Assembly: GCA_964016885.1 (NCBI GenBank)
Contig: OZ024759.1
Location: 22,196,001 to 22,260,000 of the forward strand
DNA length: 64,000 nucleotides
Reading direction: 5' to 3'
Source: Eledone cirrhosa
Taxonomy: Eukaryota
In this document: one piece after another, positions 2,884 to 61,231 of the stretch
How the letters are laid out: each line of letters starts with the position of its first letter
Position numbering within the stretch: the first letter of the stretch is position 1
The notes under the pieces: generated by a model
Databases searched by the model: none
What the model was told of the DNA's origin: nothing
Seen by the model: the letters and a program-made list of their open reading frames with translations, nothing else
Program-made: the position numbers and the translations under genes

Positions 2884-3234
2884 ATATTTATATATACATC
2901 ACTCTTAGCCACTAGGCCACATGCATTCACCATAAGATTTTAAAGCCAGAGATGTGTGTATTAGGGTTTGCCACTCGCCCTGGATATTTTGAATTAAGCA
3001 AGCCAACATCCAGCTCACGGGATGGAACCTCTGGTCTATACACACATATAAACACACACTATCTATTTCACTAACCACTGATCTACACATACACACACTA
3101 TTTCACTGTCTGTTTTGCCACACCTTTGGGATGGAACCATTGGTCTACTCACACAACACACGCATAACACACACACACACACAACACTCATATAAATACA
3201 CACTATCTATTTCCCTGTCTGTTTATACTTTCAG

Positions 3235-3352
3235 TGGATTGTTGAACGGGATATCTGCTTTCAACTATAGCCTAGCTGTTGGAATCATCATGATATTTAT
3301 CGGAATACTTTTTATTCTCATTTCTATATTTACATTTGCGCTACTTGTCAAG
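3235..3352 (+). CDS. SCAMP: Secretory carrier membrane protein, penultimate coding exon (TM4 region)
   Basis: ttcag| acceptor and |gtacag donor. Reads GLLNGISAFNYSLAVGIIMIFIGILFILISIFTFALLVK, matching the SCAMP last transmembrane segment, and joins in phase 0 to the 15014 exon. Upstream exons lie outside the window. Confidence 0.88.
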
Positions 3353-4584
3353 GTACAGTTTGATTATTTCTGCTGTGTGTTGTCTTGTTTTATTGTAACT
3401 CTAACAACTCTTATCTCTTCTCCTTTAACTTTAACCTCAACCCTCACCTATCCATCCCCCATCACACCCAATCTACCACTCACCACCACCACCACAACTA
3501 TCACCCTCACCCTGAAAGGTTCTCTCTCCCGCCCTCTCTCTCTCTCCACTTAACACTCTCACCCTGTAAGGCTCTCTCTTGCCCTCTTCCCTATCTACTC
3601 TCACCCCGAAAGGCCTTCTCTCTCTCCCTCTCCTAGCCACCACCCTCACCACCATTTTCTGCTCCCCCTAAGCCTCCTTCTGTAATATTCCCCTCCCTTC
3701 GCCCATTTCCTGCTCCCCTAGACCCCCGCCCCTCTGTAATATTTCCATCACCCTCAATGATCCATCAATTGATTCCCCTCCATCCCTCCTCCTTTTAACA
3801 CTATTTCCAACTGACCATCTTTCAGTCCAGTGCATCCCACTTTTTCTTCATTTAATAATAATAATACTAATAATAATTTGAAATGTGGTCATCCCAAAGC
3901 AAATCACTATTAGTAATAGTTGAAAAAAAATTGAGTGAAATACCCCTGGAGACAGGGAAACTGTAGACAGTCCTCTCAGTCCATTTTTTTTTTGTGGGTG
4001 AGGGGTTGTTTCAAGAGGTTTGTCACCTGATTTTCTCATCTATTATATAGTGAAGATGCATGGCTTAGTGGTTAGAACCTTGGGCTTGCTATTGGGAGGT
4101 TGTGAGGTCAATTCTCAGACCAGCTGATGCGTTGTGTTCTTGAGCAAGACACTTTATTTCATGCTGCTCCAGTTCTCTCAGCTGTAGAAACGAGTTGTGA
4201 CGTCACTGGTGTCAAGCTGTATCGGCCATTGCCTTTCCCATGGACAACATACATTGTGTATATATACTTGGTGTATATATAATATATATGAGTATTCATG
4301 TCACTGGTGCCAAGCTGTATTGACCTTTGCCATTCCCTTGGACAATATACATCATGTATATATACTGGACATAGTGTATATATAATATATATGAGTTGTG
4401 ACGTCACTGGTGCCAAGCTGTATTGGCCATTGCCTTTCCTTTAGACAACATGCATCATGTATATATACTATACATAGTGTATATATAATATATATGAGTT
4501 GTGACATCACTGGTGCCAAGCTGTATTGGCCATTGCCTTTCCTTTAGACAACATGCATCATGTACATAGTGTCATTTCATTTCA

Positions 4585-5887: not shown

Positions 5888-8856
5888 ATATACACACACA
5901 CACACACCCTTTATTTCTTCATTATTAATCATGACACCGTTTTTTTTGTTTTATCTCACTTTCTTTATTATATTTCTTTATTTCTTTATTACATTTTTTT
6001 TATATCTCAGGTACAAGGGAATGAAAAACTTGCATTGGTTTTTATGTCATCATGACTATTATCATTATTATTATTGCAGAGGGTTGGCAGAATCGGTAGA
6101 GTGTCGTACACCATGCTTTGCAGCATAGAGTTTACGGCTCTTTATGTTCTGAGTTCAAACCCGTAGAGGCTTTGAAAGGCTCCCTTTGTCTTTCATCCAT
6201 TTAATCGACTTTCCCCTCCCCACTACCAAGTTGCTGGCCTTGTGCCTATAGTAGAAATCATTATTTTTTTTTTATTTATATATATATTTGTTTTGGTAAA
6301 TTTGAAAAGAAGAACATAAAAAATATATATATATGTGGTGCTGCCATCAAAGTAAATTGAAACCTCATCACGATGTGGATCTCTCTTTTTAGCGGCTGGT
6401 TCATTTCCCTGTCGGCCTTTGGTAGTCATCCTGCCTTGGGGGTGTTTCTAACCCTTGTCTCCCTAAGTCTCACTGTTTTCACTGCAGCAAACATCTTAAT
6501 GCTTATTAAGGTATGAACTAGTTTCTAACGAGTTCTCTTCTCTTAACTCTCTCCCCAGCCCATAATTCCAGTCCTCCATTCCACGCCAGCATCCTCTGCA
6601 AAGTCAAACCATCACTGGACGCTTAACAGGTGGACACACACATACGAATATACATATCTATATGTACGAGCATACATACGTATGTATATACATGCATACA
6701 TATGTATGAACATATATACTTACGTACATACAACATACGGACATACATATGTACATGCATGCGTCCATACATACACACATACATACATGCACACATACAT
6801 ATGTACGAACATGTATACTTATGTACATACATATTTATGAACTTAAATATGTACGAACATACATACATACATATGTATATACATGCATGCGTATGTACAA
6901 ACATATATACCTATGTATATATCGACTTGCCCACTTTCATACGGACATACATACAAGTATACGTACACACATATGTACATACATTTATACCAACATATGA
7001 ACCAACATATGCACACATACACATAGACATATGTACATACACATACACAAACACTCACACACATACCTACACACACACATTACACATGTACACACACAAG
7101 ATTGTGTTGTTTTTAATGTTTAATATTGTTATGTTGTTGTTGTTGTTGTTATTAGGTTTGGCAGTATCGGTAGAGGGTTGGATGCCATGCTTTGCAGCAT
7201 AGTTACAGCCCTTTATGATTTGAGTTCAAATCCCGCCGAGGTTAACTTTGCCTTTCATCCTTACGAGGTCAATAAAATAAAGTACCAGTCACGCACTGGG
7301 GTTGATTTAATCAACTTTCCCCCTCTCTCAAAATTGCTGGTGTTGTGCCTATATAAGAAACCATTGTTATGGTGGAATCATTGAATATTGGACAAAGTAC
7401 TTTTAGACATTTAGCCATGATCCTTTACACAGTTTTGAATTCAAATCCTGCCAAGGTCAACTTTAACCATGGTTCTGGTTCTTTACAATTTTGGAGTTCA
7501 ACTGTAGCCATGGTTCTGGTTCTTTATAATCTTGAGTTCAAATCCAAATGCAGTCATCTTTAGCCACGATTCTGACAAAAAAAATGGCTTAATAATAATG
7601 AGAATCAGACACGTAAAAGTGGTACTGATTGTGGTTGGTGCACTGGTTAGATGCATGGCTTGAGAAGCTAAGAATTACCATCAGGATGGGATTGTTGCAG
7701 AAAACAGCTTTGCTAGAAACAGCAAGGCTTCTGAGGTGGGTGTTAAGAAAGTTGAAGGAAAAGTAATGATCCAAAAGACCTTTGGCCAATGGCTATTGCT
7801 CGCTCTTTTGATATAGTGTCGCTATAACATTTGCCAGAGCAAAACATTACAATTAACAATAATAATAATTGTTTTTTACTTTTGGCACAAGGCCAGCAAA
7901 TTACCCAGTGTATTACTGGTACTTTATTTTATCAACTCCGTAAGGATGAAAGGCAAAGTTAACCTTGGCGGGATTTGAACTCAGAATGGCAAGGGCCGTA
8001 ACTCCATGCGTCAAAGCATGGCGTCCGACCCTCTACCGATACTGCCAATCCACTGCCCTAACAATAATAATAATGATTTCTAGTGTAGGCACAAAGCCAG
8101 TAATTTGGGGAGAAGGGAAAGTTGATTAAATCAACCCCAGTACATTACTGGTGCTTTATCAACTCCGTAAAGACGAAAGGCAAAGCTAACCTCGGCAGGA
8201 TTTTAACTTAGACCGTAGTAATAATAATAATTATAATAATAAAACCCCAGGACCTACAAATATATATAGCATACAAAAGCTAGCACTATTAGGCACTGCA
8301 CACATACTACAAAAAGTACTATCAATACAATAAAAACAACATCAGCAAAAACTACTGCTCATACCCAAGGCTCACAGAGCTGTGTTCGGTAAAACAGTAA
8401 TGATGCACAATAAAAATAATAGAAATAATGATAGTGATAATTATACCAACAACAACAACAACAATCTTAATAATTCCAAAATTGATAAAAAGAAGACCAT
8501 TCATGTGTAAATTTACATTTCTATTCATTTTACACCAGTAATATCTCAACTGGTTAAAACTTTCTTCATATACACATGGCCTCTTTGGTGTTCTTTTGAT
8601 GGATTGACCTTGCAAACTTCAAACTTCATGAGCCGCAGCCTGTAGCATCTTTATTCACTAGGCTCTAACTGTGAATGATATTCATGTATGAAGACACATT
8701 TTTGTTCAATAATGAACCACTCACCTTACTGATATTCAATATTCTGCTCAGTTAATTGCTTATTATAGTTTATTTTGTCTGTTTAATTTTTGTGCTTTTT
8801 GTCCATACTGGAATTGGAATTTCGGAGTTGTAGATTGCTTGGCAAGTGTTTGAGGT

Positions 8857-9897
8857 CCTGTGTGTTGAAACTAAAGCAATACCGCTGTGGAAGTGTCAGT
8901 GAGTTCCTGTGTGTTGAAACTAAAGCAGTACCACTGTGGAAGTGTCAGTGAGTTCCTGTGTGTTGAAACTAAAGCAGTACCTCTGGAAGTGTCAGTGAGT
9001 TCCTGTGTGTTGAAACTAAAGCAGTACCACTGTGGAAGTGTCAGTGAGTTCCTGTGTGTTGAAACTAAAGCAGTACCACTGTGGAAGTGTCAGTGAGTTC
9101 CTGTGTGTTGAAACTAAAGCAGTACCACTGTGGAAGTGTCAGTGAGTTCCTGTGTGTTGAAACTAAAGCAGTACCGCTGTGGAAGTGTCAGTGAGTTCCT
9201 GTGTGTTGAAACTAAAGCAGTACCACTGTGGAAGTGTCAGTGAGTTCCTGTGTGTTGAAACTAAAGCAGTACCACTGTGGAAGTGTCAGTGAGTTCCTGT
9301 GTGTTGAAACTAAAGCAGTACCACTGTGGAAGTGTCAGTGAGTTCCTGTGTGTTGAAACTAAAGCAGTACCACTGTGGAAGTGTCAGTGAGTTCCTGTGT
9401 GTTGAAACTAAAGCAGTACCACTGTGGAAGTGTCAGTGAGTTCCTGTGTGTTGAAACTAAAGCAGTACCACTGTGGAAGTGTCAGTGAGTTCCTGTGTGT
9501 TGAAACTAAAGCAGTACCACTGTGGAAGTGTCAGTGAGTTCCTGTGTGTTGAAACTAAAGCAGTACCACTGTGGAAGTGTCAGTGAGTTCCTGTGTGTTG
9601 AAACTAAAGCAGTACCACTGTGGAAGTGTCAGTGAGTTCCTGTGTGTTGAAACTAAAGCAGTACCACTGTGGAAGTGTCAGTGAGTTCCTGTGTGTTGAA
9701 ACTAAAGCAGTACCACTGTGGAAGTGTCAGTGAGTTCCTGTGTGTTGAAACTAAAGCAGTACCACTGTGGAAGTGTCAGTGAGTTCCTGTGTGTTGAAAC
9801 TAAAGCAGTACCACTGTGGAAGTGTCGGTGAGTTCCTGTGTGTTGAAACTAAAGCAGTACCACTGTGGAAGTGTCGGTGAGTTCCTGTGTGTTGAAA
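8857..9897. repeat. 49-bp minisatellite, about 21 near-identical copies (SCAMP intron)
   Basis: Unit gagttcctgtgtgttgaaactaaagcagtaccactgtggaagtgtcagt. Confidence 0.97.
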
Positions 9898-10755
9898 CCC
9901 AGGTTCCCTTTAAGCTGCATTGATGTCAAGTCGCTGTATTGGCTATTGGCACCAAAATGTTGCCCTGAGGTATCTTTGAATTTCAAATATTTTTGCTCAA
10001 AGCATCAAATATTCTTCTCAGTGTTGTGGAAATTTAGAGGGAACTTTTTTTTTTACTTAATCTTTTTTTTTTTTGTCCCTTTTATAGTATGTTGTGGTGG
10101 GGTGGGGTGTAGTATGGTATGATGTGTGAGAATATGTGTTGTGTGGTGTGTTGTGCATATGCATGTGTGATATGGTGTAGTGTGTGTATGTATATGTGTG
10201 GCATAGTGTGGTGTGCGCATGCATACATGTGTGTGTGTCTTTTGTTGCTTTTGTCTACAAAAACGAAAGGTTTTTCCCTAAGTTCTCCATAATCTGGCAA
10301 CAATAGTGATATGTAGACAATAAAAAAAACTACTGTGTCATTCTTCTAACACTGATCATTTCTTGAGAAACTCAGCCTTTCATTCTTAACCTTTAGATTG
10401 CTGAATTCTTTTTATGAATTGCTTCCCCCGACATGGCATTACGTATTAAGGGGAGACTACTCTCTTGTCGCAATTTGTCTCCAACAACGTGCTGAAGGTT
10501 AACTTTCTGTAATGATTTAGCAGAAAATATTTCAAAACAGGTTTAAATGTTTGTAGTATCTTTTCTGAAGGTATGTGGCTGTGTGGTTAGGTTATTCAGC
10601 TCATAATCGTAAAGTCATGAGTTGGATTCCCGTTGGTGCGTTGTGTCCTTAAGTAAGACAGCTTATTTCACATTGTCCCACAGTTCACTCAGCTGGCCAA
10701 GAATGAGTTGTACCTGGTAATTCGAATGGCCAGCCTTGTCACACTGAATTTCCAG

Positions 10756-14870: not shown

Positions 14871-15013
14871 ATGAATCTGTTTCTAGATATTTTCTACCAA
14901 CTCTTTTCAGGGTGGTAACATGTTTAACTATAACCAATGCCTTTTTTTCTTTTTACTTCTTTGTTTTTCACCTTCTCTCATTCATTCTTTTCTTTTTTTT
15001 TTTTTTCGAAAAG

Positions 15014-15178
15014 GTACACCGAGTCTATCGCAGTACTGGTGCTAGCTTCCAGAAAGCCCAGGCAGAATTTGCCCAGGGTGTGATGCGTAATGAAACCGTT
15101 CAGACTGCTGCTGCTAATGCTGCTGCTGGAGCTGCACGAGGAGCAGCTCAGCAGTACGGCTCCAACAACCGTTACTGA
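15014..15178 (+). CDS. SCAMP: SCAMP terminal coding exon
   Basis: Poly-T tract + aag| acceptor. [37 protein letters not shown]...* is the hallmark SCAMP C-terminus (cf. SCAMP1 [37 protein letters not shown]). Confidence 0.95.
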
Positions 15179-17251: not shown

Positions 17252-17397
17252 CACATACATACATAAGGGTAGAACTGGTGGTTCTGGTAGACAAATCATG
17301 ATGTAAGAAATCAATCAAAGTACTCAACGTTATGCAAGTCATCTATCGTAGATGTGATGGATGTCCAGTGGTTGGAGCAGGAGCGGAGTAAAGTATT

Positions 17398-17907
17398 TAT
17401 AAAATGATAGCAGAAGGCTGGACTGGAAGATATGCTTTAAAATTTTTATTCCATGAAATGACTATACATATTCCCATGGCCCACCTCCGCCATCCAAATA
17501 CGATGCAAGACAGGATGATCTCATCAGGTAAATTTGACAGAATTACACACCAGGGTTACATTGAACACAAACTTATCATGGAAGATAGGGAAAAGAGAAT
17601 AGGAAATTGAAAAATGAAAGTTCGACTTTGAGACTACCTGTAAAAAAAAAACTTGTACTGTGAGAAAGGGGCCCCTGAGTTGAATTTTCATTTTTCAATT
17701 TCCTATTCTCTTTTCCCTATCTTCCATGATAAGTTTGGGCTTAATGTAACCCTTTTATGTAATTCTGTCGAAGTTACCTGATGAGATCGCCCTGTCTTGC
17801 ATCTTATTTGGATGACAACGCAGGGCCATGGAAATACGTATAGTGACTTCAAGGAATTAATATTGTAAAGCATATTTTCCAGTCTGGCCTTCTGTTGTTG
17901 TTTTATA
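17398..17907. mobile_element. Diverged inverted repeat (about 225-bp arms) carrying a hammerhead; Penelope-like inverted pLTR remnant
   Basis: Arms are imperfect reverse complements. The right arm has an intact core and the left arm has GGAA in place of GAAA. Confidence 0.7.
17770..17850 (+). ncRNA. Type I hammerhead ribozyme motif
   Basis: GAAGUUAC-CUGAUGA-[GAUCGCCCUG...CAGGGCCAUG]-GAAA-UACGUA-UA-GUGACUUC. 8-bp stem I, palindromic stem III. Confidence 0.75.
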
Positions 17908-17984
17908 TATATATCTATATATAAAACGGTCGGAGCTCAGCTGTTAGGGTCCTGACTATTTTCCTATATATATATATCTTAGTC

Positions 17985-18400
17985 TTAGGTTCTTCTGCAC
18001 CTTTTGATTAGTCGCCAACGATCACGATCAACGGCAGCATTTTCGCGTCCGTCCCAAGTGATGTTGGCTGCCAGCAGGTTTTTTTGGAATGTTCGTCGCC
18101 AGGTGATCATGGGGCAACCCCGCTTTCGTTTACCGCCAAGTAGAGTCCAGTTCATCATTGTTTTCAAGTGACATTCGTTGGGCAGAATATGGCCAGCCAG
18201 GCACCGTCCACGGCTCGCCTCTCCACAGGATTTCCTCGTTTTGCACTCGTTCGCACCAAGACACAAAAGGATCCGTTCCAGGCACTGTTGGTGGAATGTG
18301 ATCAGCCGTCTCTCTATCTTAGCCATGCTCTTCCAGGTTTCGTTCGTGTATTAAGGGGACGTTACTCTATTGGAGACATAACGTGCCTAGAGTATGCTGA
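17985..18400 (-). mobile_element. RTE-like LINE 3' fragment; other RTE-like fragments at about 23940-24260, 28030-28310, 33570-33725, 39850-40225, 51300-51830, 52915-53420
   Basis: FHQQCLERIL...GHIL...GKRKRGCPMITWRRT...AVDRDRWR, typical of the RTE ORF C-terminus. Confidence 0.75.
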
Positions 18401-18485: not shown

Positions 18486-18536
<51 letters not shown>

Positions 18537-18603
18537 GACGTAAAATAAGAAAATATTTTTTTTAAAAAAATTTTAAAAAAATTTTTTACTTACTTAAATT
18601 TTC

Positions 18604-18685
18604 ACTCCAACTAATTAGTTTCTGCAATGGGATAAAGACAGTTACGTAATCCAACTGTCGAGAATTCATTGCGTCATCAGGGAGT
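18604..18685 (-). ncRNA. Type I hammerhead ribozyme motif, copy 1 in 558-bp repeat
   Basis: ACUCC-CUGAUGA-C[GCAAUG..GACAGUU..AACUGUC..CAUUGC]A-GAAA-CUAAUUAG-UU-GGAGU. Confidence 0.82.
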
Positions 18686-19161
18686 CTATTCTCAGTTAAG
18701 TCTCCAGGCAATGCGCGGACACTGGCGGCTCATATAAAAATAATAATAATTCGGTAGATCGAACAGCTTGCGAGGACTGGATTCTATGTACCGAAATTCT
18801 CACTGCTTCAAGTCAAATGGCCGATTCTAAAGAATCAATCACGTGACACAGAGGCTAGTTAGAAGGAATGGGATGGTAAGATGACTGACGCCTACTAACA
18901 CCCCAAAAAAAATTTTTTTAGAAGTGCTTTTGACAAGTTTGCTCGACAAATCAGTGATTTGGAGATAAATATAGATAATTTAATATATCAACTAACATAA
19001 GCGCACAGATGCACGCCCATGCCAGCAAATACACAGGTTATGTCATAGTACCTAGGTGGTTCAATGCAGGAGAATGCAGAACAATAATATAAAGGACGTA
19101 AAATAAGAAAATATTTTTTTAAAAAAAATTTTAAAAAAATTTTTTACTTACTTAAATTTTC

Positions 19162-19243
19162 ACTCCAACTAATTAGTTTCTGCAATGGGATAAAGACAGT
19201 TACGTAATCCAACTGTCGAGAATTCATTGCGTCATCAGGGAGT
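19162..19243 (-). ncRNA. Type I hammerhead ribozyme motif, copy 2 in 558-bp repeat
   Basis: Identical to copy 1, offset 558 nt. Confidence 0.82.
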
Positions 19244-21057
19244 CTATTCTCAGTTAAGTCTCCAGGCAATGCGCGGACACTGGCGGCTCATATAAGAATA
19301 ATAATAATTCGGTAGATCGAACAGCTTGCGAGGACTGGATTCTATGTACCGAAATTCTCACTGCTTCAAGTCAAATGGCCGATTCTAAAGAATCAATCAC
19401 GTGACACAGAGGCTAGTTAGAAGGAATGGGATGGTAAGATGACTGACGCCTACTAACACCCCAAAAAAAATTTTTTTAGAAGTGCTTTTGACAAGTTTGC
19501 TCGACAAATCAGTGATTTGGAGATAAATATAGATAATTTAATATATCAACTAACATAAGCGCACAGATGCACGCCCATGCCAGCAAATACACAGGTTATG
19601 TCATAGTACCTAGGTGGTTCAATGCAGGAGAATGCAGAACAATAATATAAAGGACGTAAAATAAGAAAATATTTTTTTTAAAAAAATTTTAAAAAAATTT
19701 TTTACTTACTTTTAAAAAAATATTTTCTTATTTTACGTCCTTTATATTATTGTTCTGCATTCTCCTGCATTGAACCACCTAGGTACTATGACATAACCTG
19801 TGTATTTGCTGGCATGGGCGTGCATCTGTGCGCTTATGTTAGTTGATATATTAAATTATCTATATATATATATATATATATATTGAAGTAAACGAGGTAT
19901 CATTCAAGGTAATACACGTTTTTACAATATATACACTATGTAGAGTATATACACACTATAATGCCCAAGGGAGAAGCAATAGCAACTGCAGCTTAGCACC
20001 AGTGATCATCGCAACTCATTTCTACAGCTGATTAAACTGGAGATAACTCTTAGCTAATTATCCCCCTTGTAACAATTCATAAATATATATCTTAAGTATG
20101 GTCATTTGGTACCCAGTAAGGGTAATTAGACTCATACCAAGGTAGAGATGGTCCTCTTCTGAATATCGAGCATCACGCGGTATCAATTCCTCCCAGATGG
20201 GTATCAATATGAGAAGCGATAGCTTAATTCGACTGGGTGGTTGGTTCGTTCCTTCTCAAGCCTTCAATTGAAAATGTTGACTGAGGGTGCATCAACTGTT
20301 TCTTGTTTGAAGTTCTTCCAGTGGTTGATCGCATGCATAGAAAAGAAGTGGTTCCTTGGACTTCGTTGGTGCTGCACCTTGAGCTTCGGGTAGTCCTGCT
20401 GAGTGCATTGCTGCAGTTGGGACACCTAGTGTACTGTACTTTATCAAACTCATTTAGTATTTTAAAAGATTGTATGATGTCTACCCCCGGCTTCCTATAC
20501 TCCAGCATCGGAAGTCCCAAAGCCTGAAGATTATTCCTCTCACGTTTTAAACAAGTACAACGAAATTTCAAAATACCCAAATATTACGACCAGATTTAGA
20601 CCTTGTGGGGCCCGGAGCAGTTCAGATTTGGTATACTCCTCGTATAACACACACACACGCACATATCATCATCACCGTTTAACGTCAATCTTTCATGGCA
20701 TGGGTTAGACGAGATATCATGTTGCGGGCAATGCTAGGTCAGGTGACCATGCCTTGCTCATACAGAACCAATTTTGGCTTGATTTCTACAGCTGCATATA
20801 TATATATACTCATTACAAACAGAACGTCAGACTGGGAACTTTTTTTAAAATTTAATTCAGCGAAAATTGGTGAACAACTTAACGTAAAGGTTATATATAT
20901 AAGCGTGGAAGATGGACGTTAAACGATGATGATGATGCAGAGGTTATATTTAATTTGTTGGGATTCAACAAGCTTTAAAATGTTTTATAACTGATTTAAA
21001 GCACTCAACAGTTTAGTGGAGTAAATATACAATATATTAACAAATGGAAACCATATT

Positions 21058-21123: not shown

Positions 21124-21995
21124 CAATACAGATTAGTTTTATAAATAAATATTGACATACCCTGAAAAAAGACAACCTTAACGGTTGGAGCTTCCTGGAC
21201 TAGCCAATAGTATATTAATAAATGGAAAATATCTTTATAATACCATATTTATTTTATTATACGTATTTCAAGGACACAAAATTTTAGTGTGATTTGAATG
21301 ATAATCAACAAACCATATAACTCATTGTTTATATATATATATAGTTCACCAGAAGTACAAAAAGCCTTATCAGTTTCACACTTTATATGGAAAAGAGGAA
21401 AGAAAGTTCGATGTGTCGGTCTTTAGCCCTTCTTTAGGGGTACAAAAATAGAGACAGGATCACAAAGGAAAGATAAAGAAAATAAAAGTTAGTCCAATTT
21501 TAAAAAAAAACGAAAATAGAGTAAACAAGACAAACCATTAGGTAGTCTTGGTAACGATTTTGGAACGCAAAGTGGAGTGCGTGTGCATTAGTCTCGATAT
21601 TATGTGTTTGTTTAAACGTGCGCGTTTTTTTAAATATATTGTAAAAAATATGAAACTTAGTGTGTGTTATACGTATAATCTGTATAATCTGTGTAGTATA
21701 TGTGGAAGTGGACTTGTATGTGTGAGAAAATGTAAGTTTCAATATGTGTACTGTATATGTGCGTTGAAGTTATTTTGAGTGTGTGTAAAGTATCTGGCAG
21801 TGTTACTGTATGTAGTGAAACATGGATTTGTATGTGTGAGTGAATGATTAAATTTTAACGTGTGTATGTATGTTGAAATTTATAATGTTTACGTGTAAAG
21901 TATCTAACTGATTTGTATGTAAGTATTAACGAGTTTGTGACGTAGGATAAAGGAAGTATCTTTAGTGTGTCATAGAGAATATATGACAAAGCAGA

Positions 21996-22200
21996 CTAAA
22001 CAAAGATGGGTGGGACATGAAAGGTTTGTAAGGAAAAAATAAGTTGTTGTTCTCTACGCCAGCGCGAGTCAGAGGGTCGGGAACAATGTGCGAGCCCGAA
22101 GACACAGGTGGTGTGGAGTGGCCGGCGGATTGAAAATGTCAGTATATGGATGGGGCTAGATGAAAATTTACTGGACAACAATTCAAAATAGAGGAGTTTC
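21996..22200 (-). mobile_element. Penelope-like GIY-YIG endonuclease C-terminal remnant
   Basis: CVFGLAHCSRPSDSRWRREQQLIFSLQTF resembles the PLE tail (VxGLxxC...RxxxEQxLIFxLxTL). Confidence 0.55.
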
Positions 22201-22823: not shown

Positions 22824-23588
22824 TCAGGGTGTGTGCCGCCGACAAAATGACAAATGATCTTCCGAGATGGATGGCCAGCGACACCCGTTGCAAATTAGAG
22901 GAATGATCAAATGTTTTTGCGAACTCCAAAAACAATAAGCCATATCATTGGAATCCGAGCCAATCTCATCATAGATATCGCTGACCAAGTTCTCAAAAGA
23001 GTATAACTTGCCGAACTCTGTCATATATTCGCGAAACAGTTTGCTTAAATGGCTAGATAAGCTCTTGTCTTTATACATATAAGCAACACTAAAATACTTT
23101 TCCTTCTCAAAATAACATGTACATTTTTTAGATTCATCTTTGTTGTTGTTTCTAATTAGGAAAACAAGTGTTGGCCTTTCTTTAGTTATTTCGTTAGCTG
23201 TTTCCTGAACTTCACACTTTATCGATTTAAACAACTTTTTCAATGTTTCAGCTTCCTCAGCATCATTGCTGTCTATAATCACATTCAAGTAAGATTCGCA
23301 TTTAAATGGATAAGAGTAGAGAAGGTGAACTAAGTGATCATTGTTGCTTTTCTTTAAACTCGAAATCAGCTTATCAATTATGTCAGTGCTTTTGCTGTCG
23401 CTTTCATACAATTTTTTAAATATGAGATCGTGTAAGAAATACACATCAGATATTTTTCCAGAATCTCCAGACGGTATAAAGTCGTCCCATTCTTCAAAAA
23501 AAGTTTCTTTCTCATTTAATTTCTTACAAAATTCCCACTTAATATTTTTAAACATTTCCAGGTAATCTTTTCGAGGGATAGTACACAT
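22824..23588 (-). CDS. Intronless 254-aa protein; putative CARD/death-fold + degenerate caspase-like domain
   Basis: 765-nt non-repetitive ORF with an in-frame TAA 7 codons upstream of the ATG and a splice acceptor (tttttaacag|) at 23645-23646. Domain call rests on by-eye motif similarity only. Confidence 0.7.
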   Translation of the reverse strand: MCTIPRKDYLEMFKNIKWEFCKKLNEKETFFEEWDDFIPSGDSGKISDVYFLHDLIFKKLYESDSKSTDIIDKLISSLKKSNNDHLVHLLYSYPFKCESYLNVIIDSNDAEEAETLKKLFKSIKCEVQETANEITKERPTLVFLIRNNNKDESKKCTCYFEKEKYFSVAYMYKDKSLSSHLSKLFREYMTEFGKLYSFENLVSDIYDEIGSDSNDMAYCFWSSQKHLIIPLICNGCRWPSISEDHLSFCRRHTP

Positions 23589-24372
23589 CTTAGTAAAACT
23601 TGTTAGTTACTTCCTTGTATAGCGGTGTCAGACAAACATTAGCCCTGTTAAAAATAAGTACCAATTTGTTAGTCAGCCGGTGGAGATGTCGATCACACCG
23701 TATACTATAGGGTTGGGGGAAACGTTTGAGAACCTCTGTCATAGGTTCTCAAAATGGGTGCTACTGCCCCCCCCCCTCGTGGGGACTTGAGATGGTCCGG
23801 GGGGGGGGCGGTAGACATGATATAATAGTACATTAAATATCAAATGATATATACTATAAATAAAATATTGTAAAATAAAAAATGTATATAATATTTAATT
23901 CTATATAGTATATTAAATATCATTTATCATATATCAATTCTTCATTTCTTCGCCCACTTATTCCTGAGAGGGTCATGGAGGCAGAATCCTGAAACACTTC
24001 CTTCAGCGGGTCCTGTCAGAGGCAACCGTCTCCAACTAATTCGACTGGATCCCCAAGCGTGACCAGCCAAGCTCATGGGTGTTACGCAACCATCTCGCTC
24101 GGGGTCTACCCCTGGGTCCCCTGCCGATTGGTTTCGCCCATAAAACCTGTTCAGCGATTCTTTCCTGAGACATTCTAACCACATACTCATAACATCGGAG
24201 CTGTGATCTCTCAATTCGGAGAAGTAGCGGCTCTACCTGGAGTGACTCAGGAATTCAGGACCGGGTATGCAAATACTATTGCATCCAAATTCAGAGAACA
24301 CCTTGGGAAAACTGAGGATATTGAGACAGTAGAATGTTCTATATATCAATTAATGATTTTATTTATTATATA

Positions 24373-30950: not shown

Positions 30951-31017
30951 GTCTGTATTTGTTTTTTGTTATTTTTCATTTTTTTTTTAAGTTCATTTAA
31001 ATATTCCATTTAAATAG

Positions 31018-31234
31018 GGTCGTTGAAAATCTGAAATGTCTGGTTGCAAAGAAAGATGTTAAGATATTGTCACCTATTACAAACCCTGATAAGTTAATAT
31101 GTGTTGGTATGAACTACAAGGACCACTGTGAGGAAATGAATATGGCACTCCCTGCAGAACCTGTCATCTTCAGCAAGTTTTCCAGCTGTATTGTGGGTCC
31201 TAACGACAATGTTATATACCCTAAAGAAACAACA
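31018..31234 (+). CDS. FAHD2A: FAHD2A exon 2
   Basis: tag| ... |gtaaat. Encodes LSPITNPDKLICVGMNYKDHCEE...PAEPVIFSKFSSCIVGP. Confidence 0.95.
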
Positions 31235-32126
31235 GTAAATATATAAATATATTATTCTTTTACTCTTATAGATGTTGTTTGTATATAAGGTTTAGCCTAA
31301 ACCATATAAATTTATTGAGGGATGGATAGATGGATGGTCCCGTAACTCCTGTGAAGTCAAAGGAGCACCTAGTGGCATACAGCGTTTCCAGGGCTTTGTT
31401 TTAAAACCTTGGCAGAGCCCATCTCCTTTCCAGGTCTGAATGCAGCAGATTTCTTCCAGAGAAAGATACAGAATGAGAGAATGGAAATGAAAAAGAGATA
31501 CACTGGAAGAATCAACCCCCTGGTATTAGACTGGTACTCTATTTTAGCAACCTTGAATGGATGAAATGCAAACTTGAGCTTGGTTGGATTTAAACTTGGA
31601 GAGCAGAGAGCTGAAACAAATACCACAAAGTTTTCTATCTGACTTTCTAACAACTCTATTATAAATGGTTTAATCCTTTGGTATTTAAACCTGCTGTATC
31701 CGGCCAGAATTCTCTCACCACTTTCTGTTCAAACCGGCTGTAATTGGCCACTCATACTGATGTTAAGGTATTGTTCTCAAAATAAATGATATCAAAATTT
31801 CATAGATTTGATATTATGTGTGATAAAGCCTTTACCATGAAAATATAATAGTAAATATAGAGTAATGTAAATGTTAAAGTGTTAATGATCCAGTCACCAT
31901 AGTGTTTCTCAGCCATGATAATCTTTTTTCATTTCACTTTCTGATGATAGCTTATCTGACTTTACTAGAAAGTGCGCCGAGACAAAGTGGCGCACCCTTT
32001 TCAAGTGTCACCCATGGCATGTGCCATACTTGCCTTACATTAGCTATGCCTAAACCGTTCAGGTAGTGTGTATATAATGTTTTGGTGGTGTATATGATGT
32101 TTATATATATATAATGTGTGTGTGGG

Positions 32127-52178: not shown

Positions 52179-52256
52179 CTATGCTCTGCTGCTCTTTGTA
52201 TATTTAAAAATCTGACAACATAAAAACAAAAAAAAGTGGTTGTAATTAAGTCTCAC

Positions 52257-52851
52257 CTTGGCACCAACTCCAGTTAATTTTTGGAGCTCTTCTTTAGCCT
52301 GTCCATACGATGCTTTACGGAGATTATATAACCAATCCACTCCGTTTTCTAGAGAAGCAATATATTTAGCACTCTTACTGATATATCCAGCTCGGTAGCC
52401 AAAACCAAGTTCCTTTAACTTTTCTTCAACTCCAATCGCAGACAATGCATCAACAGTCGGGAACGTATGGTACGTTTTCCCTTCAAAACTGCCAAGTTCT
52501 ATTCCGTAATGGCAGCAGAGTTTATCAATCATTGACGTAATCCGTTCTATGTTGTTATTTGATGAGCAGATGAAAGAGAAAATATTTTCAACGGGATCCT
52601 GTCGTAGCACTCGTATTCCTTGAAATTTCGGTCCAACCGTTTTGCAGAAGACAGGGTCAGCCTGCCTCCATTTTTCATACAAATCTTTTACACTAATATC
52701 TAACTGAAAATAATTGCTTAATTCTTGCTGACAGTCTTTTTGGTTTCCACTTGATGCTTGGTACAATATATTGCCTTCTTCATCTTGTCTGAGATGCCAT
52801 ATTTTGTTGGCAAATACTCCACTCCAAGCAGAAGAACTTGTATTACTCCAT
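52257..52851 (-). CDS. OGG1: OGG1 exon 2
   Basis: caag| ... |gtgaga. GIRVLRQDPVENIFSFICSSNNNIERI, LGFGYRAGYI, HhH motif LTGVGAK with the catalytic Lys. Confidence 0.97.
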
Positions 52852-54774
52852 CTTGATAGCACAGAGGAAAAAGAAAGAGAAAACTATAATAATTCTTCCT
52901 AATATTGCAGTAATGCGCCAACTTCAGCATTTGGTAAACAGAAAAAGGGAGGTAGGTGTAAAAGCCAAACTCACTATCTTCAAGTCGGTATTCATGCCCA
53001 CCCTTATCTATGGTCATAATCTTGGGTAATGACCAAAAGAATATGATCGCGAATACAAGTGGTCGAAATGGGGTTCCTCCAAAGGGTCTTTGGAATAACG
53101 TTACTCAATACACTGCGTAGCTCGGAGGTGATTGTCACTCCACGTAGAACCACTATTTCTCCAAATTCACAGCTCTGATCTATGAACATGTGATTAGAAT
53201 ACCCCAGGAAAGAATCACTGGACAGATTTTACGGGCAAAACCAACCGACAGGAGACTCAGGGTTAGACGCTAAGCAAGATGGTTAAATGAGCTCGACTGT
53301 TTCGTTTGGTGATCCAGCCAAATCAATTGGAGCTGGTTGCTTCTGACAGGACCTGATGGAGGGAGTGTTTGAGGACTCTGCTCCCACGACCCTCTCAGGA
53401 ATAAGTCGGAGTAGAAAGGATGGATATATATATATAATTTTTGGTGATTTTGCCTTAAAGAATAAAAACTAATATAATAAAAGTATATTTTTTAAAATGG
53501 GGCACCTGAGAATGTTGCTCTAAGCTATAGCTTATAAATAAGTCCAGTACTGTCGCCACCCGAGAACTCCGTAACAAGAAGAAAAAATACAAACAATTAA
53601 CAAAACAATCGGACGGTTCACTCATTTTCGTTATCCCTTTAATTTATTTGATTAAAAGTGATTAAACATAAGAATGATATTTTAATAATTTATTTCTTGG
53701 ATAAATATTCTTCAACGTATATATATATATGACACAGATGATTAAATGTATGACTAACTTTGGAGAAATAACTATTTACAAGGACAAATGTAAGGGTTAG
53801 AACACAGGACCTTGAGATTGGAAAGGGAACTTTTTATTATAGTAATATGACTATGTATGTTTGTGTGTGTGTATATATTGCTATGGTATGGTCGCGTAAC
53901 TCTTGAGGGGGTCGTAGAGGCGCCGTATTGACATACACGTACGGGTTTTGAGCCCATTTTAAGGCTGGCGGAGCCCATCTCCTCTCCAGGTTTGAATACA
54001 GAAGATTTCTTCCAGAGAAAGCGATCTAAAGGAAGAATCGACTCAATATGAGACTGGTACTTATTTTTATCGACTTCGAAAGGACGAAAGGCAAAGTTCG
54101 CCGAGGCGAGGTGTGAATTCAGAGAGTCGAAATGAATACCGCAAAGCATTCTATCTAACTTTCTAACGACTCTGCTAATTCGCCGATGTGTGTGTGTATA
54201 TATTAAAGAGTTACAAACGGATATAGATAGATAAATAGAAAGATCTTATAAAATTGATTTTAAAAATAGTAGACGAAGTGACGGGAAAAACGGACGAAAC
54301 CCTGGTCAGTCCCTTCTCATAAGTCGACCCTCTGGAAGCCCTTGTGATTTTAGGGACAGCCTTGGGTTTCGTCTGTTTTTTCTTTGTCTTCGTCCATGTT
54401 TTTTGTGTATAAATATACAAACACACGTGGTGGTTTATTTTTGTTGATTTCCGCTCGTTAAATCTATAAAATATAAATAACTTAGGATTGTTTATCGGTC
54501 AATTTTCAACGCGACACTTGAGACCGGTGTTGTTCTATAAATTTGCCCTCTTATCGCACTGCGAAATAACTAGAATTATTTATCGTAAGATGACACCAAT
54601 TAATAAAACATGTGTTTAAGTCACACGAGGAACACTATATATATTTATGTATGTGTGTGTATACATACACACACATATATATATATATATAGATATATTT
54701 ATGTGTATATTTTTGCTTTCCTTATTGATCTCATACGATATCCAACTAAAATTAGAAATATCTTTTATTATTAC

Positions 54775-55214: not shown

Positions 55215-55805
55215 ATAATGAAATTATTGTGTAAAGTGCTCAGGTGCACTACAACTCGTCAAAGGTGTATGTATAGTACATAGAATAATATACAAATGTC
55301 AGGGAAGTGAATAGTGTATGAGTCATGGTATACATGTATGTGTATGGAGGGGGAACATTAGCTGTAGTGTTGGCGGATCTCGGGAAGCATGGAGGCCTTA
55401 AAGGATGCAGTGTCTCGACAGCTAACAACCGATGCAGGTAGTTTGTTCCATGCTTCAGCAACTCTGAGCGTGAAAAAATGTTTCCGAAAGTCATGGGAAC
55501 TGTGCTGTTTTCTTACTTTGTGGGCATGTCCACGTGTGTTAGACACATGGAAATCAAAAAGGTACTCAGGGTTGTTGTTGGCAAGATGGTTAACAATTTT
55601 GTGGGTGTTTACCAAGTCAGTTGCCAGGCGTCGGAGCTTCAATATATCCATGCCCAGGGAAGCAAGGCGCTCAGAGTATGGTAGATGCCTGATGGAGGGT
55701 ATTCGCTTGGTTGCACGTCTCTGAACAGTTTCCAGGCGGTCAATGTTCTGAGCAAGATAGGGGTTCCAGACTGGTGATGCAAATTCTAAGTGTGGCCGCA
55801 CCATA
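55215..55805 (-). mobile_element. CR1/L2-like LINE 3' fragment; related copies at about 41225-41650 (-), 36730-37070 (+), 20224-20530 (-)
   Basis: MVRPHLEFASPVWNP...LETVQRRATK...YSERL...TRGH...FFTLRVAEAWNKLP. Confidence 0.85.
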
Positions 55806-56489
55806 GTAATGCTGCATGCATGTTGGTTTACTTCAAAATGTATCAGAGAGATGTTCTGGCGTCCCATGTTGTTTTTGACCAATTGACGATGGTAAGTTAA
55901 TTTAAGTTTCAGATCCACTAGTTACGAAATATATTTTCACATTGTGTTGTAAATAATCTTAACAACATAAATTACAAAATAATCTACACATAACAGACTT
56001 TTTAATCAATAGTTAATTAATTAATATATATTTTTATGAGCAATTTGACAACAGATCCAGGTTTTGTTTCCCGACAAGCTGAAGATAACAAGCTGTTGAA
56101 ATATGAGCTGCTTTCTGATAGGTTTATCGTAAAACATAGCAGTAGAGACTTCTGGTGTTCTGGGTCCTTGAATCACCCCCCACTACTATTTTGGCAGAGT
56201 TGGTCACCCACAAGTGATACCTATGAAGTGGACTGTTTTCTTGTTGAACATATAGCAGTAGAGCAAGCATGTCAAACATGTGGCCTTTACAAGAACACCT
56301 GTGGCCCGCACAAAGGTTTTTACAGTGCGAGTACGTTTTATCTTCTCAGTTTGACATACCTGCAGTAGAGACTTCTGGTGTTCTGGGTCCTTGAATCAGC
56401 CCGCTTACTCACTACTATTTGGGCAGAGTTGGCCACCCAGAGGTATGAAACCCATGAAGTGGACTGTCTTTTTGTCAAGCTTATAGCTG

Positions 56490-59400
56490 TGGAGACTCCC
56501 GGTGTTTTGGGTATCCAAATCACCTCCCTTCTTGGTACTGTCAGTGTGGAGTTGGCCACACACAGGAGTGAACACTGTCAAGTGAACTGGTTTCTTGTCA
56601 AATCTACAGCAGTGGAGACTCCTGGTATTCTGTACCCAAATCACCTCTCTTCTTGGTACTGTCAGTGTGGAGTTGGCCACACACAGGAGTGAACACTGTC
56701 AAGTGAACTGGTTTCTTGTCAAATCTACAGCAGTGGAGACTCCTGGTATTCTGTACCCAAATCACCTCTCTTCTTGGTACTGTCAGTGTGGAGTTGGCCA
56801 CACACAGGAGTGAACACTGTCAAGTGAACTGGTTTCTTGTCAAATCTACAGCAGTGGAGACTCCTGGTATTCTGTACCCAAATCACCTCCCTTCTTGGTA
56901 CTGTCAGTGTGGAGTTGGCCACACACAGGAGTGAACACTGTCAAGTGAACTGGTTTCTTGTCAAATCTACAGCAGTGGAGACTCCTGGTATTCTGTACCC
57001 AAATCACCTCTCTTCTTGGTACTGTCAGTGTGAAGTTGGCCACACACAGGAGTGAACACTGTCAAGTGAACTGGTTTCTTGTCAAATCTACAGCAGTGGA
57101 GACTCCTGGTATTCTGTACCCAAATCACCTCTCTTCTTGGTACTGTCAGTGTGGAGTTGGCCACACACAGGAGTGAACACTGTCAAGTGAACTGGTTTCT
57201 TGTCAAATCTACAGCAGTGGAGACTCCTGGTATTCTGTACCCAAATCACCTCTCTTCTTGGTACTGTCAGTGTGGAGTTGGCCACACACAGGAGTGAACA
57301 CTGTCAAGTGAACTGGTTTCTTGTCAAATCTACAGCAGTGGAGACTCCTGGTATTCTGTACCCAAATCACCTCCCTTCTTGGTACTGTCAGTGTGGAGTT
57401 GGCCACACACAGGAGTGAACACTGTCAAGTGAACTGGTTTCTTGTCAAATCTACAGCAGTGGAGACTCCTGGTATTCTGTACCCAAATCACCTCCCTTCT
57501 TGGTACTATCAGTGTGGAGTTGGCCACACACAGGAGTGAACACTGTCAAGTGAACTGGTTTCTTGTCAAATCTACAGCAGTGGAGACTCCTGGTATTCTG
57601 TACCCAAATCACCTCCCTTCTTGGTACTGTCAGTGTGGAGTTGGCCACACACAGGAGTGAACACTGTCAAGTGAACTGGTTTCTTGTCAAATCTACAGCA
57701 GTGGAGACTCCTGGTATTCTGTACCCAAATCACCTCCCTTCTTGGTACTATCAGTGTGGAGTTGGCCACACACAGGAGTGAACACTGTCAAGTGAACTGG
57801 TTTCTTGTCAAATCTACAGCAGTGGAGACTCCTGGTATTCTGTACCCAAATCACCTCCCTTCTTGGTACTATCAGTGTGGAGTTGGCCACACACAGGAGT
57901 GAACACTGTCAAGTGAACTGGTTTCTTGTCAAATCTACAGCAGTGGAGACTCCTGGTATTCTGTACCCAAATCACCTCTCTTCTTGGTACTGTCAGTGTG
58001 GAGTTGGCCACACACAGGAGTGAACACTGTCAAGTGAACTGGTTTCTTGTCAAATCTACAGCAGTGGAGACTCCTGGTATTCTGTACCCAAATCACCTCC
58101 CTTCTTGGTACTGTCAGTGTGGAGTTGGCCACACACAGGAGTGAACACTGTCAAGTGAACTGGTTTCTTGTCAAATCTACAGCAGTGGAGACTCCTGGTA
58201 TTCTGTACCCAAATCACCTCTCTTCTTGGTACTGTCAGTGTGGAGTTGGCCACACACAGGAGTGAACACTGTCAAGTGAACTGGTTTCTTGTCAAATCTA
58301 CAGCAGTGGAGACTCCTGGTATTCTGTACCCAAATCACCTCCCTTCTTGGTACTGTCAGTGTGGAGTTGGCCACACACAGGAGTGAACACTGTCAAGTGA
58401 ACTGGTTTCTTGTCAAATCTACAGCAGTGGAGACTCCTGGTATTCTGTACCCAAATCACCTCTCTTCTTGGTACTGTCAGTGTGGAGTTGGCCACACACA
58501 GGAGTGAACACTGTCAAGTGAACTGGTTTCTTGTCAAATCTACAGCAGTGGAGACTCCTGGTATTCTGTACCCAAATCACCTCTCTTCTTGGTACTGTCA
58601 GTGTGGAGTTGGCCACACACAGGAGTGAACACTGTCAAGTGAACTGGTTTCTTGTCAAATCTACAGGAGTGGAGACTCCTGGTATTCTGTACCCAAATCA
58701 CCTCTCTTCTTGGTACTGTCAGTGTGGAGTTGGCCACACACAGGAGTGAACACTGTCAAGTGAACTGGTTTCTTGTCAAATCTACAGCAGTGGAGACTCC
58801 TGGTATTCTGTACCCAAATCACCTCCCTTCTTGGTACTGTCAGTGTGGAGTTGGCCACACACAGGAGTGAACACTGTCAAGTGAACTGGTTTCTTGTCAA
58901 ATTTACAGCAGTGGAGACTCCTGGTATTCTGTACCCAAATCACCTCTCTTCTTGGTACTGTCAGTGTGGAGTTGGCCACACACAGGAGTGAACACTGTCA
59001 AGTGAACTGGTTTCTTGTCAAATCTACAGCAGTGGAGACTCCTGGTATTCTGTACCCAAATCACCTCTCTTCTTGGTACTGTCAGTGTGGAGTTGGCCAC
59101 ACACAGGAGTGAACACTGTCAAGTGAACTGGTTTCTTGTCAAATCTACAGCAGTGGAGACTCCTGGTATTCTGTACCCAAATCACCTCCCTTCTTGGTAC
59201 TATCAGTGTGGAGTTGGCCACACACAGGAGTGAACACTGTCAAGTGAACTGGTTTCTTGTCAAATCTACAGCAGTGGAGACTCCTGGTATTCTGTACCCA
59301 AATCACCTCCCTTCTTGGTACTGTCAGTGTGGAGTTGGCCACACACAGGAGTGAACACTGTCAAGTGAACTGGTTTCTTGTCAAATCTACAGCAGTGGAG

Positions 59401-60567
59401 ACTCCTGGTATTCTGTACCCAAATCACCTCTCTTCTTGGTACTGTCAGTGTGGAGTTGGCCACACACAGGAGTGAACACTGTCAAGTGAACTGGTTTCTT
59501 GTCAAATCTACAGCAGTGGAGACTCCTGGTATTCTGTACCCAAATCACCTCCCTTCTTGGTACTGTCAGTGTGGAGTTGGCCACACACAGGAGTGAACAC
59601 TGTCAAGTGAACTGGTTTCTTGTCAAATCTACAGCAGTGGAGATTCCTGGTATTCTGTACCCAAATCACCTCTCTTCTTGGTACTGTCAGTGTGGAGTTG
59701 GCCACACACAGGAGTGAACACTGTCAAGTGAACTGGTTTCTTGTCAAATCTACAGCAGTGGAGACTCCTGGTATTCTGTACCCAAATCACCTCCCTTCTT
59801 GGTACTGTCAGTGTGGAGTTGGCCACACACAGGAGTGAACACTGTCAAGTGAACTGGTTTCTTGTCAAATCTACAGCAGTGGAGACTCCTGGTATTCTGT
59901 ACCCAAATCACCTCTCTTCTTGGTACTGTCAGTGTGGAGTTGGCCACACACAGGAGTGAACACTGTCAAGTGAACTGGTTTCTTGTCAAATCTACAGCAG
60001 TGGAGACTCCTGGTATTCTGTACCCAAATCACCTCCCTTCTTGGTACTGTCAGTGTGGAGTTGGCCACACACAGGAGTGAACACTGTCAAGTGAACTGGT
60101 TTCTTGTCAAATCTACAGCAGTGGAGATTCCTGGTATTCTGTACCCAAATCACCTCTCTTCTTGGTACTGTCAGTGTGGAGTTGGCCACACACAGGAGTG
60201 AACACTGTCAAGTGAACTGGTTTCTTGTCAAATCTACAGCAGTGGAGACTCCTGGTATTCTGTACCCAAATCACCTCCCTTCTTGGTACTGTCAGTGTGG
60301 AGTTGGCCACACACAGGAGTGAACACTGTCAAGTGAACTGGTTTCTTGTCAAATCTACAGCAGTGGAGATTCCTGGTATTCTGTACCCAAATCACCTCTC
60401 TTCTTGGTACTGTCAGTGTGGAGTTGGCCACACACAGGAGTGAACACTGTCAAGTGAACTGGTTTCTTGTCAAATCTACAGCAGTGGAGACTCCTGGTAT
60501 TCTGTACCCAAATCACCTCTCTTCTTGGTACTGTCAGTGTGGAGTTGGCCCACACACAGGAGTGAAC
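56490..60567. repeat. 121-bp satellite, about 33-34 copies, with diverged copies upstream (about 56139-56490)
   Basis: Pseudo-ORFs recur every 121 nt from 56595 to 60346. Confidence 0.98.
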
Positions 60568-61231
60568 CCTGTGAATTGGAATGACTATTTTAACACATCT
60601 CCCATGCTATCCTCCAGGGGTCACACTTTCTCTATTCTATCTGCTGGAACCATGAGGTGACATACACCTGGGGTTCTGTACATCAGTGAGTGTCCACCCA
60701 CACAGTCTAGGCCTGTGTGGGTGTTCGGTTACTTCTATCATTGAGGTAATCAAATGCTTGGATAACATCCATGAACTTGGTTGGTCTCGCTTGGGGGTCC
60801 ATCCATATCATTTGGAGACGGTTAGTTCTGATAAGGACACCCTGAAGGGTGTGTCTAAGGGCTCTGGCCTCACAGCCCTCCCAGGAATATGTGAGCAAAG
60901 AAGAAGAGATATATCATCATCATTGGCGTCATCATCCCCATCAGTACTATCACATTCAGCGTCATCATCCCTATCATCATCATCATCATCATCACTGTTT
61001 TACCTCTATTTTCCATGCTTGCATGGGTTTGACAGGTTCTTAAATTCTGTGTTTAGGCAGACCAGATGACTGTCATGCTCATACATTCCATTTTGACATG
61101 GTTTCTATTTCAACAACAGGGCCCCACTTCCTTACACCATTCAAGGTATATATGGGGGGGGGGGTCTTTTCATAGGACCACCACTAGCATCTGACACAGG
61201 GGACTGGATAATATTTTCGTGGTACCAACAC

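Follow-up and report, generated by a model that had tools for sequence, protein, structure and literature searches.

A tandem repeat within the window, by which we mean the whole 64-kb stretch of Eledone cirrhosa DNA analysed here, is in our judgement probably a young, dispersed insertion of a many-copy, non-coding 558-nt type I hammerhead retrozyme family. The family probably descends from the pseudo-LTR of a Penelope-like element (PLE), and a borrowed PLE endonuclease/reverse transcriptase is likely to have placed this insertion in a (TA)n tract, copying one RNA of more than unit length. Its layout agrees with the sequence-only reading, which had described two near-identical 558-bp units, a third partial unit stopping about 13 nt from the next cut and a terminal inversion, all within (TA)n (Table 1). 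The two full units differ at 2 of 558 positions (18563 T/19121 A, which sits at a homopolymer boundary, and 18738 A/19296 G). They are followed by the 67-bp part of a third unit, which indeed ends 13 nt to the 3' side of the next cut position, and by an inverted arm of ~150 bp; the reverse complement of 19712-19869 corresponds to 18965-19122 with one mismatch and to 19523-19680 with two. The arm is joined to the TA flank through a short TA-like microhomology, and at the other end of the element ATATA (18529-18533) is common to the (TA)18 tract and unit 1. A target-site duplication is indistinguishable from the TA tract at this element. The window contains no N, and no further copy of the 558-bp unit lies elsewhere within its 64 kb.

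Table 1. Positions of the element, its predicted ribozymes and its flanks in the window
Feature	Position	Strand	Remarks
Full unit 1	18529..19086	-	558 bp, 36% GC, non-coding
Full unit 2	19087..19644	-	556/558 identical to unit 1
Partial third unit	19645..19711	-	67 bp; sense strand begins 13 nt 3' of cut-equivalent position
Inverted 5' arm	19712..19864	+	fold-back copy of 18969-19122 / 19527-19680
(TA)18 target tract	18498..18533		element's 3' end
(TA)11 tract	19861..19882		element's 5' end
Type I hammerhead 1	18592..18701	-	predicted cut 18609/18608
Type I hammerhead 2	19150..19259	-	same sequence as hammerhead 1; predicted cut 19167/19166
Hammerhead 1, distal helix	18701-18696/18597-18592	-	6 bp
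Hammerhead 1, stem I	18685-18681/18608-18604	-	5 bp
CUGAUGA core	18680-18674 (hammerhead 1), 19238-19232 (hammerhead 2)	-	
Hammerhead 1, C.A mismatch at base of stem II	18673/18623	-	
Hammerhead 1, stem II	18672-18667/18629-18624	-	6 bp
Hammerhead 1, outer hairpin	18659-18637	-	8-bp hairpin beyond 7x7 internal loop
Hammerhead 1, stem III	18619-18610	-	10-nt palindrome, after GAA, before GUU
Predicted loop I/loop II pseudoknot	18660..18693	-	GAGAAU 18693-18688 with AUUCUC 18665-18660
Predicted pseudoknot, unit 2	19251-19246 with 19223-19218	-	
Predicted cut-to-cut monomer RNA	18609..19166	-	558 nt; MFE -140.8 kcal/mol, z -4.56
IIVLHSPALNHLGTMT reading, ending at a stop	19038..19086	-	also in unit 2 and inverted arm; putative endonuclease C-terminal remnant

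The minus-strand type I hammerhead previously proposed for each full unit was recovered at exactly the predicted cuts. Our custom type I descriptor, which permits a long loop II and a mismatch at the first pair, matched at these two sites and nowhere else on either strand of the 64 kb. When the unit was shuffled 5000 times with dinucleotides preserved, none of the shuffles matched, whichever of three stringencies was applied. Stem I extends through an internal loop to the distal helix, and loop II is branched and 39 nt long. The Rfam check suggested earlier gave no hammerhead match for the unit at E≤1 or E≤10; sub-threshold matches (miRNA-type on hairpins or TA repeats; one snoRNA and one sRNA at E≥5) were dismissed as chance. 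The long loop II probably accounts for this miss, and a match to an Rfam model forms no part of the retrozyme definitions in the accessible text of the published sources. Apart from that loop and an extra A before GAAA, the unit fits the PLE consensus CUGANGAH G..C GAAAN palindrome NUH. Like the PLE hammerheads of the Hydra clade, it combines a CUGANGAH core with a short stem I, a 6-bp stem II, GUU and a palindromic stem III of 9-10 nt; by eye, 26 of the 26 Hydra-clade rows in File S2 of PMC8557442 have a near-palindromic stem III of that length. Of these 26 rows, 15 show a mismatched pair at the stem II base. C.A, as found here, is also the pair in PLE-X1_cBra, and the mismatch is known variation. 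Loop II measures 3-10 nt in the 26 Hydra rows and in 44 metazoan rows of Cervera's Figure S3, and ~30-nt loops are found there only in two spike-moss PLE-X elements. The published octopus PLE hammerhead Hydra-1_Obim differs in sequence from that of the unit.

GAGAAU in loop I and AUUCUC in the stem II internal loop are exactly complementary over 6 bp, pointing to a pseudoknot between the two. Matches of this length arose in 3421 of 200000 pooled shuffles (p 0.017) and in 8714 of 200000 within-loop shuffles (p 0.044), a post hoc test whose support is modest. Neither strand of the predicted pseudoknot contains a variant among the 40 family variants listed of 111. In the pseudoknotted hammerheads of PMC3088659, as in the contact predicted here, Watson-Crick pairing between loop I and stem II replaces the canonical loop-loop contacts; such pseudoknots are reported there for ~40% of the hammerheads of Perreault et al. 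Unlike those, the present contact would join two internal loops, in a dimer-type repeat ribozyme. The 39-nt branched loop II with its predicted 6-bp loop I/II pseudoknot appears to be new. Two diverged contigs from public run X4, compared by eye over 30 letters each, retain UUCUC about as far from the core as in the unit, following a stem II strand that differs. These contigs leave the unit behind 19201 and 19202, the 3' half of the hammerhead being common to the unit; they probably represent further long-stem hammerhead families and possibly include an autonomous partner.

Folding also favours the dimer-type hammerhead put forward by the sequence-only reading. In its minimum free energy fold (-24.3 kcal/mol) the hammerhead monomer is inactive, the stem III strand being paired with the core; the active fold lies at -21.8 kcal/mol, with a stem III pair probability of ~0.11 and a probability of 0.0008 for the exact active structure. 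Cofolding of two copies gives a double hammerhead at -58.2 kcal/mol, as against 2 x -24.3 kcal/mol. Activation by dimerisation is thus predicted.

The other copies to be expected of a mobile element were found in public sequencing runs. Parts of the unit occur in 20 run rows from 16 studies, 5 of them containing at least half of the unit's words. The family comparison covered 4 of the 24 listed runs at a likeness of at least 80%, leaving out the small-share rows X11-X20, and 19107-19149 was skipped as repeat in comparing reads and contigs. Run X1 (organism A) contributed 1038 matching contigs (305 at ≥99% identity, 342 at 95-99%, 295 at 90-95% and 96 lower), run X4 (organism B) 30 and run X7 (organism D) 3. 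The RAD raw reads of run X22 (organism A) contained 7616 unit reads, ~0.033% of the letters read; in a 2.8-Gb genome this would equal ~1,600 unit equivalents, an order of magnitude only, as the library is biased. The 558-nt family is thus heterogeneous and many-copy, and occurs under three organism labels.

X22 read depth is unbroken across the unit junction 19086/19087 (local depth ~1870), and no loose-end group falls there among the six X22 groups listed (252-514 reads, with 201 further rows outside the list), indicating that the junction is family-wide. No contig among those listed spans it by 31 letters. A joint leading back 558 positions was rejected as evidence of a tandem or circle, being a reflection of the cut point chosen for the unit. 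Both units have C at 18927/19485, where all covering contigs (35+3+1) and 570 of 591 X22 reads have G; the allele is missing from ~96% or more of other copies. Sharing of this rare allele implies that the two units descend from one molecule, which is compatible with a local DNA duplication too. The G at 19296 in unit 2 is nearly absent from other family copies.

Variation across the family respects the predicted structure. Among the 40 variants listed of 111, none falls in the 45 positions that make up core, stem I, stem III and pseudoknot. Predicted pairs are broken by 9 of them, whereas random placement of the same substitutions would make 17.3 +/- 2.7 do so (p 0.002 for the linear and 0.0008 for the circular fold); these tests treat variants that are unphased and share ancestry, at low read depth over stem III. 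A candidate compensatory pair, 19197/19215, joins two pairing partners, seen in 114 and 109 reads and unphased, and ~9% of X22 reads have an extra base in stem I (19241). In the long hairpin at 18983-19034, four G.U wobbles of this locus, all on one arm, are A-U in 35-54% of X22 reads, a pattern that could be the footprint of A-to-I editing fixed by reverse transcription. For the variants overall such an origin was rejected, the 40 listed showing no strand bias (10 A/G versus 14 C/U). X22 read ends piled up at 18977, 19221 and 19306-19309 coincide with AATT sites and low-agreement loose ends, and were rejected as library cuts.

The unit has little coding capacity: its longest ATG-initiated ORF is 27 aa. 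It contains no tRNA gene, no Pol III box or TATA match and no promoter that we could find. A Pfam scan of 109 of the 421 filtered frames of the window detected no reverse transcriptase (RT) or endonuclease near the element. The sequence-only reading had seen a GIY-YIG-like C-terminal 'PxLN' tail at the unit start. The peptide itself is there, IIVLHSPALNHLGTMT followed by a stop, in frame and directly after the unit start, and it fits the Nematis C-termini in a published endonuclease alignment; among 20000 shuffles, 45 show a hydrophobic-x4-PxLN pattern in the first 20 codons and 570 show one anywhere in the unit. Its kinship is less clear: Val occupies the position of the catalytic Glu, Pfam returns no match for the peptide, and the family-majority allele turns S to P just ahead of the PxLN motif. 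The peptide moreover ends in LNHLGTMT and a stop, without the CxH motif into which Hydra proteins continue. Whether it is a genuine endonuclease C-terminal remnant is, from sequence, evenly balanced.

The way in which the element reached its site can be compared with published PLE behaviour. According to PMC8557442, PLEs insert as partial tandems next to an inverted 5' copy and are biased towards microsatellites and TA. AT-rich DNA is nicked by purified PAc protein, which begins reverse transcription at an internal site, 111-118 nt into the ORF (PMC11167929); with the hammerhead cut at +26, our own subtraction places this start 85-92 nt past the cut. The present locus, a single one, has the microsatellite target, the partial tandem, the inverted 5' copy and the internal 3' end, which lies 75-80 nt past the cut, inside TA. 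The TA target, this 3' end and the inverted arm together fit PLE insertion, and we infer that a PLE enzyme acted in trans on a single template of more than two units. Since no promoter was found in the unit, transcription is assumed to be read-through, from a tandem locus. Paired hammerheads sharing the 10-nt palindrome would then cleave at GUU, with stems I and II held together through the 6-bp pseudoknot. The 558-nt monomer might be ligated to a circle, or a partly cut linear multimer might serve as the template. After nicking of (TA)n, priming would be internal, 75-80 nt 3' of the cut site, and reverse transcription would cross 2.1 units and halt 13 nt short of the cut position. The cDNA end would fold back in an A/T palindrome, give rise to ~150 nt of second strand and join the TA flank. 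The tandem and the shared allele follow directly from a circular template. On a circle, chance would bring the 5' end to 13 nt from the cut position in ~14/558 cases (~2.5%), and a partly cut linear multimer fits this end at least as well; we lean very slightly towards the circle. If the octopus clock given in PMC13282606 applies, two differences in 558 bp suggest an insertion age of roughly half a million years or less.

Recently active PLE families have been reported in an octopus. No autonomous partner was found in the 64-kb window, and a comparison by eye with published octopus Naiad and Hydra sequences revealed no resemblance. A hammerhead pattern scan of viral sequences gave 0 hits; scans of metagenomes gave first 0 and then 23 loci, none of the 23 having a stem I longer than 2 bp, the palindrome or a BLAST match to the unit. 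Of the earlier proposal, a recent, multi-copy retrozyme or non-autonomous PLE derivative is supported; the partner PLE was not found. Derivation from Naiad, raised by a 'HHR_half_core' note, was rejected, since neither inspection by eye nor a comparison of short motifs relates the unit to the 3' ends of octopus Naiad. The published 3' ends of Naiad_Ovul and Naiad_Obim do have GAAAC ~25 nt upstream of CUGAUGA, which in sequence terms is a permuted hammerhead order.

Several other histories could leave a locus of this kind. That the tandem or inversion is an assembly artefact is extremely improbable: A/T palindromes and (TA)n are difficult to assemble, yet the window is free of N, the units are told apart by two sites, one being the G at 19296 hardly seen elsewhere, and the layout is the published PLE pattern (PMC8557442). 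We regard it as very unlikely that the units belong to no separate family and are instead 3' ends left in succession by an ordinary autonomous PLE, each truncated on its 5' side and linked by template jumps between different RNAs. Most PLE insertions are truncated, and the PxLN-like reading begins exactly at the unit boundary; however, the identical breakpoint would have been used twice, and once more in the inverted arm, the units share their rare allele, and reads cross the junction, where at most ~14% could diverge in any one listed group. An insertion of 1.1 units, with the second unit added later through unequal exchange between the 67-bp terminal repeats and without rolling reverse transcription, is unlikely, if less so. 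It would explain the rare allele and the near identity as well, and local amplification with unequal crossover is proposed in bioRxiv 10.64898/2026.07.22.740005, but PLE insertion usually yields partial tandems as its primary product and, with 2 differences in 558, the additional event would have to fall within a very short time.

A different doubt concerns what the hammerhead does. It is possible, though not what we expect, that it is carried along as a passenger: it would fold and be conserved, for instance as a module that binds proteins or is assisted by them, but would cleave little, and uncut multimers would serve as template. No 558-nt circle would then accumulate, a reading compatible with PLE mobilisation. 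The C.A pair at the base of stem II, U17 and the inactive monomer MFE agree with it, as do the two intact hammerheads inside one insertion. Minimal hammerheads of PLEs cleave weakly; that of PAc needs protein, and mobilisation in vitro proceeds without it (PMC11167929). One of nine predicted Xenopus retrozyme dimers was cleaved in vitro, the other eight being inactive (bioRxiv 10.64898/2026.07.22.740005). Against this stand the freedom of the core, stems and pseudoknot strands from any of the 40 listed variants, the 5' end 13 nt from the cut position, and the axolotl retrozyme, which has U.U at the same place and nevertheless cleaves and circularises. The most far-reaching version of the retrozyme interpretation remains doubtful: a cephalopod retrozyme with a novel dimer-switched, pseudoknotted long-stem hammerhead, whose 558-nt circle would be copied by rolling circle by a Hydra-type PLE enzyme. 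Such a ribozyme would escape both Rfam and descriptors built for short loops, the present locus would record one such copying event, and the X4 families would fall in the same class.

As to classification, the working definition of a non-LTR retrozyme in bioRxiv 10.64898/2026.07.22.740005 is two or more tandem units in a row that all contain a complete type I hammerhead, and this describes the locus. Like metazoan non-LTR retrozymes in general, these units are non-coding, below 50% GC, present in many copies (at the family level, in public runs) and would yield a highly self-paired monomer. The unit shares dimer activation (predicted here) and a mismatch at the base of stem II with the axolotl retrozyme, and differs from metazoan retrozymes in its 39-nt, branched loop II with a predicted pseudoknot and in its cephalopod host. 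Retrozyme units are given as 150-450 bp in PMC7229834 and as 51-972 bp in bioRxiv 10.64898/2026.07.22.740005, so that 558 bp exceeds the former range and lies within the latter. The accessible text of PMC7229834 has 0 occurrences of 'cephalopod', and the invertebrate hosts named in that of the preprint are three insects and a coral. Among the papers listed by searches of the openly accessible literature there was no cephalopod retrozyme; supplements or repeat libraries (Repbase, Dfam, the O. vulgaris library) may already contain the 558-nt family under another label. With PLE hammerheads the locus has in common the mismatch at the stem II base, the (TA)n target, the inverted 5' copy and a 3' end tens of nt past the cut. 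Of the Hydra-clade traits, the palindromic stem III and (TA)n are present by eye and the C-terminal LN...CxH is absent, a test that is relevant only if the PxLN peptide is a real remnant. Hydra-clade PLEs have an ORF for RT and endonuclease, whereas the unit has none and hence lacks the RT and GIY-YIG endonuclease ORF of an autonomous PLE. Chlamys PLEs such as MRC1 likewise include non-coding, PLE-mobilised head-to-tail units with pseudo-LTRs, but they are green-algal and, in the available text of PMC8557442, most are reported without canonical hammerheads. Retrozymes, dimer cleavage, circles and a proposed PLE origin have been published before (PMC4209133, PMC7229834, bioRxiv 10.64898/2026.07.22.740005), and the 558-nt family is a new family and ribozyme variant within a known class, not a new class.

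The surroundings of the element include several further features. In the left flank, 17394-17911 and 17985-18350 (minus strand) hold a MITE-like long inverted repeat and a frame without a Pfam match, which we take to be the C-terminus of an RTE-type LINE. Upstream, 3221-3358 (plus strand) resembles a SCAMP exon (Pfam SCAMP, E 0.0013, below the cut-off), and ~15002-15175 (plus strand), without a database match, is presumably the SCAMP C-terminus; the element lies ~3.3 kb past this SCAMP-like stop (~15175), in antisense. On the other side, ~21410-22190 (minus strand) may be an old PLE remnant. Near 21410-21450 it has what looks like a decayed hammerhead, and one frame has the ending R..EQ..IF.L.T, which by eye resembles Neptune endonuclease ends; the stretch gave no homology match and shows no relation to the 558-bp unit. 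A 260-codon open frame at 22824-23606 (minus strand) gave no match in Pfam at E≤0.01 or in the Atlas. Were it the last exon of a gene, transcripts reading through it would carry the hammerheads, 3 kb away, in sense orientation. More distant are a fumarylacetoacetate-hydrolase-family exon (31001-31243, plus strand) and an OGG1 coding stretch (52182-52883, minus strand), whose frame 52248-52808 shares 84% identity with Octopus vulgaris OGG1; of the 120 matches listed (423 found), the remaining 119 reach at most 60%, which places the host in the octopus lineage. A frame at 55358-55921 (minus strand), without a Pfam match, we assume to be the end of a CR1/L2-type LINE. Young satellites occupy 56457-60572 (121 bp x 34) and 8851-9898 (49 bp x 21), at 98% identity.

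Animal retrozymes have been linked to PLE pseudo-LTRs, with the mechanism left unresolved in the available text of bioRxiv 10.64898/2026.07.22.740005. The present locus bears PLE insertion marks on a non-coding ribozyme tandem, and this makes the rolling-circle, linear-multimer and local-duplication models separable by counting the ends of copies in octopus assemblies. Furthermore, its extended and probably pseudoknotted hammerhead suggests that searches restricted to short loops undercount the ribozymes of animals.
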